Of a stretch of DNA of 16,588 bases, positions 249 to 16,588 are shown piece by piece. The stretch comes from a virus. Taxonomy: Duplodnaviria > Heunggongvirae > Uroviricota > Caudoviricetes. The stretch is taken from the IMG/VR virus record IMGVR_UViG_2529293142_000008; one strand, given 5' to 3'. The translations under genes and the position numbers were made by a program. The notes below the pieces were generated by a model. It was not told the origin of the DNA. It did not search any database and saw nothing but the letters and a program-made list of their open reading frames with translations. How positions within the stretch are numbered: position 1 is the first letter of the stretch; each line of letters begins with the position of its first letter.

Positions 249-1548
249 TCTCCCGCATATTGCCAGCATGGCCTTTAATGAGCCGCTGATGCTTGAACCC
301 GCCTATGCGCGGGTTTTCTTTTGTGCGCTTGCAGGCCAGCTTGGGATCAGCCGCCTGACGGATGCGGTGTCCGGTGACAGCCTGACTGCCGGAGAGGCAC
401 CCGCGACGCTGGCGTTATCCGTTGATGATGACGGACCACGACAGGCCCGCAGTTATCAGGTCATGAACGGCATCGCCGTGCTGCCGGTGTCCGGCACGCT
501 GGTCAGCCGGACGCGGGCGCTGCAGCCGTATTCGGGGATGACCGGTTACAACGGCATTATCGCCCGTCTGCAACAGGCTGCCAGCGATCCGATGGTGGAC
601 GGCATTCTGCTCGATATGGACACGCCCGGCGGGATGGTGGCGGGGGCATTTGACTGCGCTGACATCATCGCCCGTGTGCGTGACATAAAACCGGTATGGG
701 CGCTTGCCAACGACATGAACTGCAGTGCAGGTCAGCTGCTTGCCAGTGCCGCCTCCCGGCGTCTGGTCACGCAGACCGCCCGGACAGGCTCCATCGGCGT
801 CATGATGGCTCACAGTAATTACGGTGCTGCGCTGGAGAAACAGGGTGTGGAAATCACGCTGATTTACAGCGGCAGCCATAAGGTGGATGGCAACCCCTAC
901 AGCCATCTTCCGGATGACGTCCGGGAGACACTGCAGTCCCGGATGGACGCAACCCGCCAGATGTTTGCGCAGAAGGTGTCGGCATATACCGGCCTGTCCG
1001 TGCAGGCTGTGCTGGATACCGAGGCTGCAGTGTACAGCGGTCAGGAGGCCATTGATGCCGGACTGGCTGATGAACTTGTTAACAGCACCGATGCGATCAC
1101 CGTCATGCGTGATGCACTGGATGCACGTAAATCCCGTCTCTCAGGAGGGCGAATGACCAAAGAGACTCAATCAACAACTGTTTCAGCCACTGCTTCGCAG
1201 GCTGACGTTACTGACATGATGCCCGCGACGGAGGGCGAAAACGCCAGCGCGGCGCAGCCGGACGTGAACGCGCAGATCACCGCAGCGGTTGCGGCAGAAA
1301 ACAGCCGCATTATGGGGATCCTCAACTGTGAGGAGGCTCACGGACGCGAAGAACAGGCACGCGTGCTGGCAGAAACCCCCGGTATGACCGTGGAAACGGC
1401 CCGCCGCATTCTGGCCGCAGCACCACAGAGTGCACAGGCGCGCAGTGATACTGCGCTGGATCGTCTGATGCAGGGTGCACCGGCACCGCTGGCTGCAGGT
1501 AACCCGGCATCTGATGCCGTTAACGATTTGCTGAATACACCAGTGTAA
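229..1548 (+). CDS. C: head maturation protease / minor capsid protein C (S49 ClpP/SppA-like family)
   Basis: GTG at 229 preceded by GAGGAGAAG (221-228), in frame with ORF 94..1548. It gives 439 aa, the lambda gpC length. The 94 start of the ORF track is an upstream in-frame Met inside B and is unlikely to be the real start. Confidence 0.88.
   Translation: MTAELRNLPHIASMAFNEPLMLEPAYARVFFCALAGQLGISRLTDAVSGDSLTAGEAPATLALSVDDDGPRQARSYQVMNGIAVLPVSGTLVSRTRALQPYSGMTGYNGIIARLQQAASDPMVDGILLDMDTPGGMVAGAFDCADIIARVRDIKPVWALANDMNCSAGQLLASAASRRLVTQTARTGSIGVMMAHSNYGAALEKQGVEITLIYSGSHKVDGNPYSHLPDDVRETLQSRMDATRQMFAQKVSAYTGLSVQAVLDTEAAVYSGQEAIDAGLADELVNSTDAITVMRDALDARKSRLSGGRMTKETQSTTVSATASQADVTDMMPATEGENASAAQPDVNAQITAAVAAENSRIMGILNCEEAHGREEQARVLAETPGMTVETARRILAAAPQSAQARSDTALDRLMQGAPAPLAAGNPASDAVNDLLNTPV
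943..1548 (+). CDS. nu3: capsid scaffolding protein Nu3, nested in-frame in the 3' third of C
   Basis: Internal in-frame ATG at 943 shares the C stop at 1548 and gives 201 aa, the lambda Nu3 length. Nested C/Nu3 organisation is known for lambda. No clear ribosome binding site seen, so the start is by analogy. Confidence 0.65.
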   Translation: MDATRQMFAQKVSAYTGLSVQAVLDTEAAVYSGQEAIDAGLADELVNSTDAITVMRDALDARKSRLSGGRMTKETQSTTVSATASQADVTDMMPATEGENASAAQPDVNAQITAAVAAENSRIMGILNCEEAHGREEQARVLAETPGMTVETARRILAAAPQSAQARSDTALDRLMQGAPAPLAAGNPASDAVNDLLNTPV

Positions 1549-1557
1549 GGGATGTTT

Positions 1558-1908
1558 ATGACGAGCAAAGAAACCTTTACCCATTACCAGCCGCTGGGCA
1601 ACAGTGACCCGGCTCATACCGCAACCGCGCCCGGCGGATTGAGTGCGAAAGCGCCTGCAATGACCCCGCTGATGCTGGACACCTCCACCCGTAAGCTGGT
1701 TGCGTGGGATGGCACCACCGACGGTGCTGCCGTTGGCATTCTTGCGGTTGCTGCTGACCAGACCAGCACCACGCTGACGTTCTACAAGTCCGGCACGTTC
1801 CGTTATGAGGATGTGCTCTGGCCGGAGGCTGCCAGCGATGAGACGAAAAACGGACCGCGTTTGCCGGAACGGCAATCAGCATCGTTTAACCTTACCCTTC
1901 ATCACTAA
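1558..1908 (+). CDS. D: head decoration protein D, C-terminus altered by an apparent 1-nt deletion in an A-run
   Basis: ATG 1558 ([12 protein letters not shown]...). After the A5 run at 1846-1850 the +1 frame encodes [13 protein letters not shown] then TAA at 1887-1889, which would give the canonical 110-aa gpD. The observed frame instead reads [19 protein letters not shown] and stops at 1906-1908. Confidence 0.8.
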
Positions 1909-1910
1909 AG

Positions 1911-1931
1911 GCCGCCTGTGCGGCTTTTTTT
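1911..1931 (+). terminator. hairpin GCCGC-CTGT-GCGGC followed by T7, between D and E
   Basis: Read directly from the sequence. It lies inside the operon, so it is more likely an attenuator or mRNA-stability element than a full terminator. Confidence 0.4.
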
Positions 1932-1944
1932 ACGGGATTTTTTT

Positions 1945-2969
1945 ATGTCGATGTACACAACCGCCCAGCTGCTGGCGGCAAATGAGCAGAAATTTAAGTT
2001 TGATCCGCTGTTTCTGCGTCTCTTTTTCCGTGAGAGCTATCCCTTCACTACGGAGAAAGTCTATCTCTCACAAATTCCGGGACTGGTAAACATGGCGCTG
2101 TACGTTTCGCCGATTGTTTCCGGTGAGGTTATCCGCTCCCGTGGCGGCTCCACCTCTGAATTTACGCCGGGATATGTCAAACCCAAGCATGAAGTGAATC
2201 CGCAGATGACCCTGCGTCGCCTGCCGGATGAAGATCCACAGAATCTGGCGGACCCGGCTTACCGCCGCCGTCGCATCATCCTGCAGAACATGCGAGACGA
2301 AGAGCTGGCCATTGCTCAGGTCGAAGAGATGCAGGCCGTTTCTGCCGTGCTTAAGGGCAAATATACCATGACCGGTGAAGCCTTCGATCCGGTTGAAGTG
2401 GATATGGGCCGCAGTGCGGCGAATAACATCACGCAGTCCGGCGGCACGCAGTGGAGCCAGCGTGACAAGTCCACGTATGACCCGACCGACGATATCGAAG
2501 CCTACGCGCTGAACGCCAGCGGTGTGGTGAATATCATCGTGTTTGATCCGAAAGGCTGGGCGCTGTTCCGTTCCTTCAAAGCCGTCAGGGATAAGCTGGA
2601 TACCCGTCGCGGCTCTCATTCCGAGCTGGAGACAGCGGTAAAAGCCTGGGCAAAGCGGTGTCCTATAAGGGAATGTATGGCGATGTGGCCATCGTCGTGT
2701 ATTCCGGACAGTACGTGGAAAACGACGTCAAAAAGAACTTCCTTCCGGACAACACGATGGTGCTGGGGAACACTCAGGCACGCGGTCTGCGCACCTATGG
2801 CTGCATTCAGGATGCGGACGCACAGCGCGAAGGTATTAACGCCTCTGCCCGCTACCCGAAAAACTGGGTGACCACCGGCGATCCGGCGCGTGAGTTCACC
2901 ATGATTCAGTCAGCACCGCTGATGCTGCTGGCTGACCCTGATGCATTCGTGTCTGTACAACTGGCGTAA
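1945..2969 (+). pseudogene. E: major capsid protein E, frame interrupted by a 1-nt deletion near 2644-2645
   Basis: ATG 1945 (MSMYTTAQLLAANEQKFKFDPLF...). The N-terminal ORF runs to 2871 with an aberrant tail. The E C-terminus (SYKGMYGDVAIVVYSGQYVEN...FVSVQLA) is in the +1 frame as ORF 2658..2969. The span is 1025 nt against 1026 nt for 341 aa plus stop. Confidence 0.85.
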
Positions 2970-2971
2970 TC

Positions 2972-2998
2972 ATGGCCCTTCGGGGCCATTTTCTCTCT
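2972..2998 (+). terminator. hairpin ATGGCCC-TTCG-GGGCCAT (UUCG tetraloop) followed by TTTCTCTCT, just after the E stop
   Basis: Read directly. 7-bp GC-rich stem with a partial U-tract; candidate attenuator between E and FI. Confidence 0.35.
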
Positions 2999-3010
2999 GT
3001 GGAGGAGTCC

Positions 3011-3409
3011 ATGACGAAAGATGAACTGATTGCCCGTCTTCAGGTGCTGGGTGAGCAACTGAACCGTGATGTCAGCCTGACGGGGACGAAAGAAGAACTG
3101 GCACTCCGTGTGGCAGAGCTGGAAGAGGAGCTTGATGACACGGATGACGCTGCCGGTCAGGACACATCTCTCAGCCCGGAAAATGTGCTGACCGGGCATG
3201 AAAATGAGGTGGTATCAGCGCAGCCGGATACCGTGATTCATGATACGGCTGAACTGGTCACGGTAGTGGCACTGGTGACGCTGCATACCGATGCACTTCA
3301 CGCCACGCGGGATGAACCTGTGGCATTTGTGCTGCCGGGAACGGCGTTCCGTGTCTCTGCCGGTGTGGCAGCCGAAATGACAGAGCGTGGCCTGGCCAGA
3401 ATGCAATAA
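3011..3409 (+). CDS. FI: DNA packaging / head assembly protein FI
   Basis: ATG 3011 preceded by GGAGGAG. Gives 132 aa (MTKDELIARLQVLGEQLNRDVSLTGTKEELALRVAEL...). Acidic N-terminal half and position match lambda FI. Confidence 0.9.
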   Translation: MTKDELIARLQVLGEQLNRDVSLTGTKEELALRVAELEEELDDTDDAAGQDTSLSPENVLTGHENEVVSAQPDTVIHDTAELVTVVALVTLHTDALHATRDEPVAFVLPGTAFRVSAGVAAEMTERGLARMQ

Positions 3410-3420
3410 CGGGAGGCGCT

Positions 3421-3795
3421 GTGGCTGATTTCGATAACCTGTTCGATGCTGCCATTGCCTGCGCCGATGAAACGATACGCGGGTACATGGGAACGTCAGC
3501 CACCATGACATCCGGTGAGCAGTCCGGTGCGGTGATACGTGGTGTTTTTGATGACCCTGAGAATATCAGCTATGCCGGACAGGGCGTGCGCGTTGAAGGC
3601 TCCAGCCCGTCCCTGTTTGTCCGGACTGATGATGTGCGGCAGCTGCGGCGCGGCGACACGCTGACCATCGGTGAGGAAAACTTCTGGATAGACCGGATTT
3701 CGCCGGATGATGGCGGAAGTTGTCATCTCTGGCTTGGCGGGGGGGGACCGCCTGCCGTTAACCGTCGTCGCTTGAAAGGGGGGGTATGGCCATAA
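3421..3795 (+). CDS. FII: head-tail connector protein FII, apparent stop-codon loss extending it 7 codons into Z
   Basis: GTG 3421 preceded by GGGAGG (3411-3416). The first 117 codons end in ...PPAVNRRR at 3771, the canonical gpFII length. Codon 118 is TTG (3772-3774) where a stop is expected, and the ORF reads LKGGVWP to TAA at 3793-3795. Confidence 0.8.
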   Translation: MADFDNLFDAAIACADETIRGYMGTSATMTSGEQSGAVIRGVFDDPENISYAGQGVRVEGSSPSLFVRTDDVRQLRRGDTLTIGEENFWIDRISPDDGGSCHLWLGGGGPPAVNRRRLKGGVWP

Positions 3796-4364
3796 AAGGT
3801 CTTGAGCAGGCCGTTGAAAACCTCAGCCGTATCAGCAAAACGGCGGTGCCCGGTGCCGCCGCAATGGCCATTAACCGCGTTGCTTCATCCGCGATATCGC
3901 AGTCGGCGTCACAGGTTGCCCGTGAGACAAAGGTACGCCGGAAACTGGTAAAGGAAAGGGCCAGGCTGAAAAGGGCCACGGTCAAAAATCCGCAGGCCAG
4001 AATCAAGGTTAACCGGGGGGATTTGCCCGTAATCAAGCTGGGGAATGCGCGGGTTGTCCTGTCCCGACGCAGGCGTCGTAACAAGGGGCAGCGTTCATCC
4101 CTGAAAGGTGGCGGCAGCGTGCTTGTGGTGGGAAACCGTCGTATTCCCGGCGCGTTTATTCAGCAACTGAAAAATGGCCGGTGGCATGTCATGCAGCGTG
4201 TGGCCGGGAAAAACCGTTACCCCATTGATGTGGTGAAAATCCCGATGGCGGTGCCGCTGACCACGGCGTTTAAACAGAATATTGAACGGATACGGCGTGA
4301 ACGTTTGCCGAAAGAGCTGGGCTATGCGCTGCAGCATCAACTGAGAATGGTAATAAAGCGATGA
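3786..4364 (+). CDS. Z: tail assembly / tail completion protein Z
   Basis: ATG 3786 after a G-rich Shine-Dalgarno. Gives 192 aa, the lambda gpZ length, in the expected position. Confidence 0.9.
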   Translation: MAIKGLEQAVENLSRISKTAVPGAAAMAINRVASSAISQSASQVARETKVRRKLVKERARLKRATVKNPQARIKVNRGDLPVIKLGNARVVLSRRRRRNKGQRSSLKGGGSVLVVGNRRIPGAFIQQLKNGRWHVMQRVAGKNRYPIDVVKIPMAVPLTTAFKQNIERIRRERLPKELGYALQHQLRMVIKR

Positions 4365-4757
4365 AACATACTGAACTCCGTAGCAGCCGTACTGGATGCA
4401 CTGGAGAAGCATGACACCGGGGCGACGCTTTTTGATGGTCGCCCCGCTGTTTTTGATGAGGAAGATTTTCCGGCAGTTGCCGTTTATCTCACCGGCGCTG
4501 AATACACGGGCGAAGAGCTGGACAGCGATACCTGGCAGGCGGAGCTGCATATCGAAGTTTTCCTGCCTGCTCAGGTGCCGGATTCAGAGCTGGATGCGTG
4601 GATGGAGTCCCGGATTTATCCGGTGATGAGCGATATCCCGGCACTGTCAGAGTTGATCACCAGTATGGTGGCCAGTGGCTATGACTACCGACGCGACGAT
4701 GATGCGGGCCTGTGGAGTTCAGCCGATCTGACTTATGTCATTACCTATGAAATGTGA
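4361..4757 (+). pseudogene. U: tail terminator protein U, frame interrupted by a 1-nt insertion near 4382
   Basis: ATG 4361 (MKHTELR) runs into TGA at 4412-4414 after 17 codons. The rest of U (...[59 protein letters not shown]) is in the next frame and ends at 4757. The span is 397 nt against 396 nt for 131 aa plus stop. Confidence 0.85.
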
Positions 4758-4764
4758 GGACGCT

Positions 4765-5505
4765 ATGCCTGTACCAAATCCTGTAATGCCGGTGAAAGGT
4801 GCCGGGACCACCCTGTGGGTTTATAAGGGGAGCGGTGACCCTTATGCGAACCCGCTTTCAGACGTTGACTGGTCGCGTCTGGCAAAAGTTAAAGATCTGA
4901 CGCCCGGCGAACTGACCGCAGAGTCCTATGACGACAGCTATCTCGATGATGAAGATGCGGACTGGACTGCGACCGGGCAGGGGCAGAAATCAGCCGGAGA
5001 TACCAGCTTCACGCTGGCGTGGATGCCCGGAGAGCAGGGGCAGCAGGCGCTGCTGGCGTGGTTTAATGAAGGTGATACCCGTGCCTATAAAATCCGCTTC
5101 CCGAACGGCACGGTCGATGTGTTCCGTGGCTGGGTCAGCAGTATCGGTAAAGCGGTGACGGCGAAGGAAGTGATCACCCGCACGGTGAAGGTCACCAATG
5201 TGGGACGCCCGTCGATGGCAGAAGATCGCAGCACGGTCACAGCGGCAACCGGCATGACCGTGACGCCTGCCAGCACCTCGGTGGTGAAAGGGCAGAGCAC
5301 CACGCTGACCGTGGCATTCCAGCCGGAAGGCGCAACCGACAAGAGCTTCCGTGCGGTGTCTGCGGATAAAACAAAAGCCACCGTGTCGGTCAGTGGTATG
5401 ACCATCACCGTGAAAGGTGTTGCTGCAGGCAAGGTCAACATTCCGGTCGTATCCGGTAATGGTGAACTTGCTGCGGTTGCAGAAATCACTGTCACCGACA
5501 GTTAA
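4765..5505 (+). CDS. V: major tail tube protein V with C-terminal Ig-like domain
   Basis: ATG 4765 preceded by GTGAGGA. Gives 246 aa ([22 protein letters not shown]...), intact. The C-terminal Thr/Val-rich beta-rich segment fits the known Ig-like domain of gpV. Confidence 0.92.
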
Positions 5506-5520
5506 TCCGGAGAGTCAGCG

Positions 5521-5943
5521 ATGTTCCTGAAAACCGAATCATTTGAACATAACGGCGTGACCGTCACGCTTTCTGAACTTTCAGCCCTGCAGCGTATTGA
5601 GCATCTCGCCCTGATGAAACGGCAGGCAGAACAGGCGGAGTCAGACAGCAACCGGAAGTTTACAGTGGAAGACGCCATCAGAACCGGTGCTTTTGTGGTG
5701 GCGATGTCCCTGTGGCATAACCATCCGCAGAAGACAAAGCAGCCTTCCATGAATGAAGCCGTTAAACAGATTGAGCAGGAAGTGCTTACCACCTGGCCCA
5801 CAGAGGCAATTTCTCATGCTGAAAACGTGGTGTACCGGCTGTCCGGTATGTATGAGTTTGTGGTGAATGATGCCCCTGAACAGGCAGAGGACGCCGGGCC
5901 TGCAGAGCCTGTTTCTGCGGGAAAGTGTTCGACGGTGAGCTGA
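5521..5943 (+). CDS. G: tail assembly chaperone G
   Basis: ATG 5521, 140 aa, ends in ...SAGKCSTVS. The slippery heptamer lies 6 codons before its stop. Confidence 0.9.
   Translation: MFLKTESFEHNGVTVTLSELSALQRIEHLALMKRQAEQAESDSNRKFTVEDAIRTGAFVVAMSLWHNHPQKTKQPSMNEAVKQIEQEVLTTWPTEAISHAENVVYRLSGMYEFVVNDAPEQAEDAGPAEPVSAGKCSTVS
5919..5925 (+). other. programmed -1 ribosomal frameshift slippery heptamer GGGAAAG (G to G-T)
   Basis: Heptamer G GGA AAG read directly in the G frame near the 3' end of G. It is the known lambda G-T slip site. Confidence 0.8.
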
Positions 5944-6358
5944 GTTTTGCCCTGAAACTGGCGCGCGAGATGGGGCGACCCGACTGGCGCGCCATGCTTG
6001 CCGGGATGTCATCCACGGAGTATGCCGACTGGCACCGCTTTTACAGTACCCATTATTTCATGATGTTCTGCTGGATATGCACTTTTCCGGGCTGACGTAC
6101 ACCGTGCTCAGCCTGTTTTTCAGCGATCCGGATATACATCCGCTGGATTTCAGTCTGCTGAACCGGCGTGAGGCTGACGAAGAGCCTGAAGATGATGTGC
6201 TGATGCAGAAAGCGGCAGGGCTTGCCGGAGGCGTCCGCTTTGGCCCGGACGGGAATGAAGTTATCCCCGCTTCCCCGGATGTGGCGGACATGACGGAGGA
6301 TGACGTAATGCTGATGACAGTATCAGAAGGGATCGCAGGAGGAGTCCGGTATGGCTGA
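5919..6358 (+). pseudogene. T: tail assembly chaperone T (G-T frameshift extension), interrupted by a 1-nt deletion in a T-run near 6056-6058
   Basis: The -1 frame from the slip site reads VFDGELSFALKLAREMGRPDWRAMLAGMSSTEYADWHRFYSTHY and then hits TGA at 6093-6095. The rest of T (HFSGLTYTVLSLFFSDPD...IAGGVRYG) is in another frame (ORF 6077..6358), overlapping the H start as expected. Confidence 0.75.
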
Positions 6359-15460: not shown

Positions 15461-16588
15461 ATGGCAGTAAAGATTTCAGGTGTACTGAAAGACGGCACAG
15501 GAAAACCGGTAGAGAACTGCACCATTCAACTGAAAGCCAGACGGACCAGCAGCACGGTGGTGGTGAACACGGTGGCCTCTGAAAATCCGGATGAAGCCGG
15601 TCGTTACAGCATGGACGTTGAGTACGGTCAGTACAGCGTCATTCTGTTGGTGGAAGGATTCCCGCCGTCACATGCCGGGACCATCACCGTGTATGAAGAT
15701 TCTCAACCCGGTACGCTGAATGATTTTCTCGGTGCCATGTCGGAGGATGACGTCCGGCCGGAGGCACTGCGTCGTTTTGAACTGATGGTGGAAGAAGCGG
15801 CGCGTCACGCTGAGGAGGCGAAGAAGAATGCCGGAGAGGCGGAGACGTCCGCGAGGAATGCTGGCATATCAGCCAGTCAGGCAGAAGAGAGCGCTGCAAA
15901 TGCTGACACTTCAGCAGGGGATGCATCGGAGTCAGCCCGACAGGCGGCAGAAAGTGCAGCCTCTGCAAAGCAGTCAGAGGAAGCGTCCTCGTCCTCGGCC
16001 TCTGAGGCCGCTCAAAAAGCCAGTGAGTCATTACAAAGTGCAACAGATGCTGAGTTGTCAAAAAAGATGGCAGAAAGTGCAGCCGGTAATGCAGCCAGGG
16101 ATGCAACGACCGCAACAGAAAAAGCCCGGGAGTCAGCAGAAAGCGCACAGTCAGCGGAACAAAGCAGGATAGCGGCGGAAGAGGCCGTAAACCGAATCCC
16201 CACCGTGGTGGGACCTCCCGGGCCAAAGGGGGAACAGGGGCCCGCGGGTCCTCAGGGGCCGAAGGGTGATAAGGGAGAGCGCGGTGACACCGGCCCTGTC
16301 GGGGCAACCGGCGAACGGGGACCGGCAGGTGATGCTGGTCCGGCAGGCCCGCAGGGGCCGAAAGGCGACAGGGGAGAGCGGGGAGAGACCGGTCTGACGG
16401 GAAATGCAGGTCCACAGGGTCCAAAGGGAGATACCGGTGCGGCAGGCCCGGCAGGCCCACAGGGACCGAAAGGAGAAACAGGTGCGGCTGGCCCGGTGGG
16501 GGCAACCGGACCTCAGGGACCGAAGGGCGACCCGGGGGAGACACAAATCCGTTTTCGTCTGGGGCCGGCGAGCATTATTGAGACAAAC
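15461..16588 (+). CDS. stf: side tail fibre protein, N-terminal portion (3' end outside window), with collagen-like region
   Basis: ATG 15461 (MAVKISGVLKDGTGKPVENCTIQLKARRTSSTVVVNTVASENPDEAGRYSMDVEYGQYSV...). Open frame with no stop to the window end, which is why the ORF track omits it. The N-terminus matches the lambda Stf (orf-401) N-terminal domain as I remember it. Confidence 0.85.
   Translation, partial: MAVKISGVLKDGTGKPVENCTIQLKARRTSSTVVVNTVASENPDEAGRYSMDVEYGQYSVILLVEGFPPSHAGTITVYEDSQPGTLNDFLGAMSEDDVRPEALRRFELMVEEAARHAEEAKKNAGEAETSARNAGISASQAEESAANADTSAGDASESARQAAESAASAKQSEEASSSSASEAAQKASESLQSATDAELSKKMAESAAGNAARDATTATEKARESAESAQSAEQSRIAAEEAVNRIPTVVGPPGPKGEQGPAGPQGPKGDKGERGDTGPVGATGERGPAGDAGPAGPQGPKGDRGERGETGLTGNAGPQGPKGDTGAAGPAGPQGPKGETGAAGPVGATGPQGPKGDPGETQIRFRLGPASIIETN
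16211..16543 (+). repeat. collagen-like Gly-X-Y triplet repeat, 37 uninterrupted triplets, within stf
   Basis: Translation in the stf frame gives GPPGPKGEQGPAGPQGPKGDKGERGDTGPVGATGERGPAGDAGPAGPQGPKGDRGERGETGLTGNAGPQGPKGDTGAAGPAGPQGPKGETGAAGPVGATGPQGPKGDPGET. The unit GPQGPKG recurs five times. Confidence 0.88.

Follow-up and report, generated by a model that had tools for sequence, protein, structure and literature searches.

Four single-nucleotide frame lesions in a lambda-type morphogenesis module, probably introduced by sequencing or assembly

The module and its frame lesions

The window analyzed here, a stretch of 16,588 nucleotides (nt) from the IMG/VR record IMGVR_UViG_2529293142_000008, carries the late genes of a lambda-like prophage, in which D, E, U and T are each interrupted by a one-base change of frame. 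The window aligns as a single collinear piece with Escherichia phage Lambda h434 imm21 (OM418627.1), at 96.7% identity over 100% of its length. Its genes, which all lie on the + strand, follow the order of the lambda late operon, B' C/Nu3 D E FI FII Z U V G/T H M L K I J lom stf', with the 3' part of B at the start of the window and the 5' part of stf at its finish. The slippery site GGGAAAG of G/T is conserved as well. By its gene order, slippery site and level of identity, the window is a standard lambda-like (Lambdavirus-type) siphophage morphogenesis module. It differs from the lambda record by four private 1-nt indels, by a 124-amino-acid (aa) form of FII and by a spacer between L and K that is 1 nt shorter.

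Lesions were called by base-level pairwise alignment against lambda h434 imm21 and against the prophage of E. coli STEC1585, which is the closest complete-genome relative over this stretch. Four single-nucleotide indels shift the reading frame, one each in D, E, U and T (Table 1). The sequence-only reading of this DNA had listed five such lesions, the fifth in FII, and had confined them to 1.8–6.1 kilobases (kb); alignment confirmed the first four, which indeed lie at 1846–6056, and FII proved to be an intact allele, as described below. That reading had also described H (853 aa), M, L, K, I and V as reading through, which holds: full-length open frames were found for C, FI, Z, V, G, H, M, L, K (247 aa), I, J (1137 aa) and lom. 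Neither a deletion longer than 1 nt, nor an insertion sequence (IS) element, nor a nonsense codon was present in the window, which leaves the four lesions unaccompanied by other decay.

The consequences for the four products differ. In D, 97 of the 110 aa are retained and are followed by a novel tail of 19 aa, to give a computed product of 116 aa; apart from the lesion, the region is that of a known intact allele, with 500 of 501 nt identical to the allele of locus L008. In E, the change AAAGACCTGG->AAAGCCTGG at 2645 removes an A that sits directly 5' of a CCTGG Dcm site, and the frame is kept for 233 of the 341 aa before a stop at 2871. The lesion in U is the opposite kind of event, a gain of A in CCGT^GCAG (CCGTGCAG->CCGTAGCAG), after which only 7 of the 131 aa are retained; translation would stop after 17 codons, and the remainder of U stays open in the +1 frame. 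Finally, the G-T fusion ends at 6095, after 45 residues of T, and the rest of the T frame downstream of the lesion appears as an open reading frame at 6077..6358. G itself is intact.

The T lesion requires separation from the programmed -1 frameshift through which G-T is predicted, from the slippery site, to be made. The GGGAAAG motif at 5919–5925 is intact and in register with the G frame, and the T frame opens at 5925. Because the motif is intact, the loss of a base within T is, on the predicted decoding, distinct from and additional to the programmed event.

In contrast to these four genes, FII shows only an apparent change of frame. Relative to the 117-aa FII of lambda, the FII of the window carries a +1/-1 pair of indels at 3773/3784 that flanks the stop codon. 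Relative to the window, both indels are absent from about 14 of the 50 panel loci (described below) that cover the site, and these share the 124-aa allele. The STEC1585 annotation lists the 124-aa FII as a head-tail joining protein that is intact (WP_000752961.1). Since the same form is annotated as intact in other E. coli prophages, we conclude from these comparisons that FII is an intact natural allele rather than a frameshifted gene. Two natural forms of FII thus occur among E. coli lambdoid prophages, namely the lambda form, with 117 aa and a short spacer, and the 124-aa form, whose additional T ahead of the stop and G run shorter by one base add 7 aa (LKGGVWP) and produce a 10-nt overlap with the start of Z (3786–4364). 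The exact FII protein of the window, read from either a V or an M start, was not found in the protein collection look-up.

Table 1. Coordinates and state of the genes and features discussed in the text.
Feature	Coordinates	Strand	State	Basis
D, head decoration	1558..1908	+	1-nt deletion, A6->A5, at 1846-1850	alignments against lambda and STEC1585
E, major capsid	1945..2969	+	1-nt deletion at 2645	alignments against lambda and STEC1585
U, tail terminator	4361..4757	+	+A at 4382	alignments against lambda and STEC1585
T frame of the G-T fusion	5925..6358	+	1-nt deletion, T4->T3, at 6056-6058	alignments against lambda and STEC1585
FII, 124-aa allele	3421..3795	+	intact; overlaps the Z start	same length and overlap annotated intact in STEC1585
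G, tail assembly chaperone	5521..5943	+	intact, 140 aa	exact G protein on record in about 1000 contigs
H, M, L, K (247 aa from 9941), I, J	6351..14727	+	intact	no private indels against the 101-locus panel
L stop and L-K spacer	9933..9940	+	1 nt shorter than lambda; harmless polymorphism	junction k-mer in 22 panel loci

Age, rarity and placement of the lesions

We compared the window with a panel of 101 loci from its relatives and scored as private any change seen in the window only. Over the whole window, the only private indels are the four lesions. Private substitutions number about 4–5 in the 15 kb that are well covered by the panel, and just one of them, a synonymous change at 3561, lies inside 1846–6056. 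We also restored a single base in silico in each broken gene and matched the products by exact sequence among about 15 billion proteins. The repaired D is an exact protein on record in at least 1000 contigs, the repaired T in 117 contigs and the repaired U in 5 contigs, and the neighboring intact FI, V and G have exact matches on record too. The whole repaired E protein is not on record, yet it contains zero nucleotides that are private relative to the panel, which makes it a new combination of known variants. Because the repaired D, U and T are known intact proteins, E has zero private nucleotides and the span holds a single private substitution, the changes are indel-only and extremely young. 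By this comparison, the broken genes have accumulated nothing since breakage.

The spectrum of these private changes is dominated by indels. Mutation-accumulation work in bacteria gives 4–23 base substitutions per small indel (PMC6330053). At indel-to-substitution ratios of 1:4, 1:9 and 1:24, the probability of at least four indels among eight private events is 0.056, 0.005 and 0.00016, respectively. Within the span only, where four of the five events are indels, the corresponding values run from 0.007 to 0.00001.

The lesions are also rare among relatives. For this search, 45-mers centered on the four lesions were concatenated into a query that seeds only on a lesion-bearing junction. The junctions of E, U and T were found in none of 5,426 complete E. 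coli genomes, and all four were absent from 50,697 phage records and from every locus of the 101-locus panel. In exact scans, the lesion k-mers of E, U and T gave zero hits in IMG/VR, those of E and U gave zero in the species representatives of GTDB, and that of U gave zero in JGI metagenomes. The D junction stands apart, in that the A6->A5 change was found in 22 of the 5,426 complete E. coli genomes, which include SaT040 and an O25:H4 strain. In SaT040 (NZ_CP014495.1, locus L013, about 6020–6026), D is flagged as a frameshifted pseudogene, and the D allele there is only 84% identical to that of the window. We considered whether the window inherited its lesion by recombination from such an ST131-type frameshifted D and rejected this origin, given 84% identity at the site as against 500 of 501 nt shared with an intact allele. 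The presence of the same junction on an allele this divergent indicates that the run loses a base recurrently and independently, and this A6 run, close to the 3' end of the gene, is probably a slippage hotspot, whether in vivo or in sequencing.

E. coli prophages in the thousands match the window at 95–98.6% identity. Segment-wise megablast against the same complete E. coli genomes returned no near-identical prophage; the nearest relatives stand at 97–98.6%, and the upper value was reached over 1500–6400. The window is a fine-scale mosaic in which the nearest relative switches every 0.5–4 kb. From 1 to 8.5 kb it is 98–100% identical to assorted E. coli prophage alleles, and from 8.5 to 16.6 kb it is about 97% identical to its nearest relatives. 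Exact H and J proteins were not found in look-ups, and J, H, M, L, K and the repaired E are all missing from the collection of about 15 billion proteins. Exact Z and I proteins were found only on prophages that are at most 99% identical locally and lack the lesions. Since H, J, M, L, K and the repaired E all lack a counterpart in the collection, a true sister of this prophage is, as judged from exact matches, absent from the record. The missing H, J, M, L and K also suggest that the assembly from which the window came is not one of those that are widely indexed.

The placement of the lesions had been taken to mean that random error or neutral decay would not obviously confine them to head and proximal-tail genes. 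That argument did not hold up. Four uniformly placed events would span at most 4,210 of the 16,588 nt with a probability of 0.053. Genes H through I make up 29.6% of the window, and the probability that no lesion falls there is 0.704^4, or about 0.25. The probability that all four fall upstream of H is 0.021, for a partition that was chosen post hoc. The clustering is marginal and not stronger than chance.

Related loci show comparable damage. Among 97 of them, with about 0.9 megabases aligned, one or more singleton indels that break a frame were seen in about 13 (about 13%), and about 6 loci have two to four of them; locus L076 has four singleton lesions, as many as the window. These lesions fall in D, E, FII, Z, U, H, K, I, J and lom, without a bias toward head-proximal genes. 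Some of the related loci carry larger frame-breaking indels (-8, -10, -22 and +25), and the four in the window are all ±1 nt. Overall, the lesion pattern of the window is within the ordinary range for related loci.

Origin of the lesions

Based on these comparisons, we consider that the four indels are probably uncorrected indel-type consensus errors of sequencing or assembly rather than real mutations. We favor this origin because the lesions are private, are accompanied by no other damage, dominate the spectrum of private changes, tend to occupy error-prone contexts and are all ±1 nt. Consistent with such errors, what separates the broken genes from their closest intact alleles is limited to single-base indels, and correcting one base in each of D, U and T gives back a known protein. 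In Enterobacteriaceae, nanopore consensus errors fall chiefly into two classes, those at homopolymers and those at Dcm motifs (Wick et al., 2019, PMC6591954), and residual long-read errors at less than 0.05% of bases can pseudogenize many genes (Lorv and McConkey, 2025, PMC12007338). Two of the lesions, in D and T, shorten homopolymers, and runs of at least four bases make up 5.2% of the window; the E lesion adjoins one of only 18 CCWGG sites in the window. Three of the four lesions therefore lie in a homopolymer or next to a Dcm site, contexts that favor real slippage too, and the +A at 4382 in U lies in neither. The likeness to the gene-fragmenting errors described for long reads (PMC6591954; PMC12007338) consists in differences that are indel-only, affect about 0.02–0.03% of bases and occur in homopolymer or Dcm contexts, from which the insertion at 4382 departs by fitting neither typical context.

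If the lesions are errors of this kind, the lambda-type head-and-tail block would be otherwise intact and recently functional, with four isolated 1-nt indels added technically. An indel-prone sequencing or assembly workflow would have produced long-read-like errors, namely homopolymer length miscalls and a methylation-motif error, that survived polishing. Their placement in the first 6 kb would then reflect chance or, at most, a stretch that was locally less well polished. A poorly polished or low-coverage stretch was among the options raised by the sequence-only reading, and it is the one we favor: the indel-dominated private changes, the exact matches of repaired D, U and T and the error-prone contexts of three lesions speak for it.

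Several observations weigh against a technical origin. Neither the U lesion (+A in CGT^GCA) nor, strictly speaking, the E lesion counts as a homopolymer event. The A6->A5 change in D is flagged as a pseudogene in SaT040 and its junction recurs in complete genomes; its presence in 22 separate ones suggests a real inherited mutation there. Clustering at a probability of about 0.05, together with an error rate of only about 0.024%, is also compatible with four real recent events. Furthermore, errors spread evenly at this rate would be expected to reach the other 10.5 kb, and the probability that all four precede H is 0.02.

The main rival account, possible if doubtful, is that the frameshifts are real and very recent, in which case a recently acquired lambda-like prophage would have begun to decay in its host through four independent slippage or indel mutations. 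The corresponding functional consequence, which we hold as tentatively, is that the decoration protein, major capsid protein, tail terminator and G-T chaperone would be lost, no particles would form and H–J would have been spared by chance. The D junction shared with 22 complete E. coli genomes, and flagged as frameshifted on a different D allele in SaT040, is consistent with this account, as are the singleton frame lesions in about 13 of the 97 related loci and the multiple lesions in about 6 of them. In addition, mononucleotide runs, on which replication slippage usually acts (PMC6330053), hold two of the four lesions. However, recent decay predicts a private indel-to-substitution ratio of 1:4 to 1:23, and the observed ratio is at least 4:4 overall and 4:1 in the span. 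Downstream of the frameshifts, D, U and T contain zero amino-acid changes, and larger deletions or IS insertions, which could accompany decay, were not seen in the window. From lambda biology, moreover, losing structural genes would bring no obvious selective gain, as induction would still lyse the cell.

A very unlikely source of frame errors is a mis-assembled or chimeric consensus of several co-resident lambdoid prophages, in which the shared segment would have been corrupted. Such a consensus could draw on the many copies of the module in E. coli genomes, where a median of 2–3 and a maximum of 17 places match it, and it would be in keeping with the mosaic change of nearest relative every 0.5–4 kb and with the missing exact matches for H, J, M, L, K and repaired E. 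Fine-scale mosaicism is, however, normal for lambdoid phages. Collapsed alleles should also show up as substitutions or as a mixture of haplotypes, and not as clean 1-nt indels within sequence that otherwise equals a single known allele. The suggestion of a mis-joined contig is likewise unsupported, since the window aligns with lambda end to end as one collinear piece, over 100% of its length, and neither a rearrangement nor a junction was seen.

We regard as highly improbable that selection inactivated the head and proximal tail while the distal tail module (H, M, L, K, I, J, lom and stf) was kept for the benefit of the host. What favors this idea is the bare pattern, in that zero frame lesions were found from 6.1 to 16.6 kb, a pattern that chance would produce with a probability of about 0.25 for the gap at H–I or about 0.05 for the span. 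The tail terminator U and the tape-measure chaperone G-T are tail assembly genes in lambda. Both are broken in the window and both are required for tail assembly, so H–J could not form a tail or a tailocin. The lesioned genes also lack a signature of relaxed selection relative to H–J, as the repaired D, U and T are known intact proteins, and singleton lesions in related loci strike H, I, J and lom as often as head genes. The earlier proposal of a cryptic prophage with maintained distal tail genes therefore fails, given that U and G-T are broken, that a lesion-free H–I is expected about one time in four and that other decay is absent. A related candidate, an F-type tailocin or domesticated tail module, was rejected, as U stops after 17 codons and G-T is truncated, and the head genes are full length bar one base each.

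Lastly, it is barely credible that four real indels arose in one localized burst of frameshift-prone synthesis in a freshly acquired prophage, a 4-kb 'mutation shower' of nearly pure ±1 indels such as a Pol IV-type polymerase might leave during error-prone mending of a double-strand break at or close to the head genes. Such a burst, if true, would account for the marginal clustering and the lack of accompanying substitutions without sequencing error.

Distal genes, relatives and meaning for annotation

The genes without lesions present several features of their own. Between the stop of L and the start of K, within 9933–9945, lies a polymorphic spacer that measures 4 or 5 nt among relatives. 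We considered the 1-nt indel at 9935 as a possible fifth error outside the span and rejected it, as 22 panel loci show the same difference. K comprises 247 aa from the ATG at 9941, and the lambda record annotates a shorter K of 199 aa; homologues of the 247-aa form in related loci match the Pfam families Prok-JAB and NLPC_P60. Across 8500–14000, which holds the end of H followed by M, L, K and J, even the nearest of the 5,426 complete E. coli genomes reaches only about 97% identity. The collection of 15 billion proteins contains no exact match to H, M, L, K or J, and repaired D, FI, Z, V, G and repaired T are common exact alleles. Because the exact head and proximal-tail alleles are common and the distal-tail ones absent, the 'clean' genes are rarer and less sampled alleles.

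At the end of the window, the N-terminal region of stf (about 16200–16560, + strand) contains G+C-rich Gly-X-Y (collagen-like) repeats. These repeats leave a spurious open frame of 286 aa on the opposite strand (15684–16544, - strand). This stretch matches the stf of lambda h434 and stf of the O55:H7 type, not that of STEC1585. Among the relatives, one locus (L002; GCA_044268625.1, DBAOGX010000015.1, 1–9000) shares the exact Z protein with the window and has its upstream head region replaced by a D5_N/DUF5906 primase-like gene, SSB, a second capsid E/D pair, AlpA, and genes with HEPN_RiboL-PSP and GmrSD_N. The layout of this locus looks like a satellite or defense island inserted in a lambda-like late region.

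Frameshifted genes were also found in annotated prophages of this type. In STEC1585 (NZ_CP129252.1, locus L012, 15351–17913), the annotation flags H as frameshifted, and the gene has an A8 run in place of the A7 that the window and lambda share. In EC12 (NZ_CP070229.1, locus L020), the portal gene, J and lom are flagged, and in SaT040, which is of ST131 type, D is frameshifted at the same A6->A5 run as in the window. Except for this run, the lesion positions in these prophages differ from those of the window, whose E, U and T lesions are unique. Single-base frameshifts, including lambda-like prophages that carry several, are common in public assemblies of the module.

Taken together, these comparisons point to nothing novel, as both phenomena that the lesions match, indel artefacts of assembly and the early decay of prophages, are known, with the data leaning toward artefacts. 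The finding carries little biological weight, given that the module is a textbook lambda-type structural module and that lesions of this kind are routine in public assemblies. Its use lies mainly in curation: the breaks in D, E, U and T are best regarded as probable assembly errors of one base, or else the genes as very recent pseudogenes, and FII should not be recorded as frameshifted. The T lesion should be kept apart from the programmed G/T frameshift, and the lack of lesions in H–J should not be taken to show that a tail module is being maintained. A point that can be reused for this family is that the A6 run of D recurrently loses a base on unrelated alleles.

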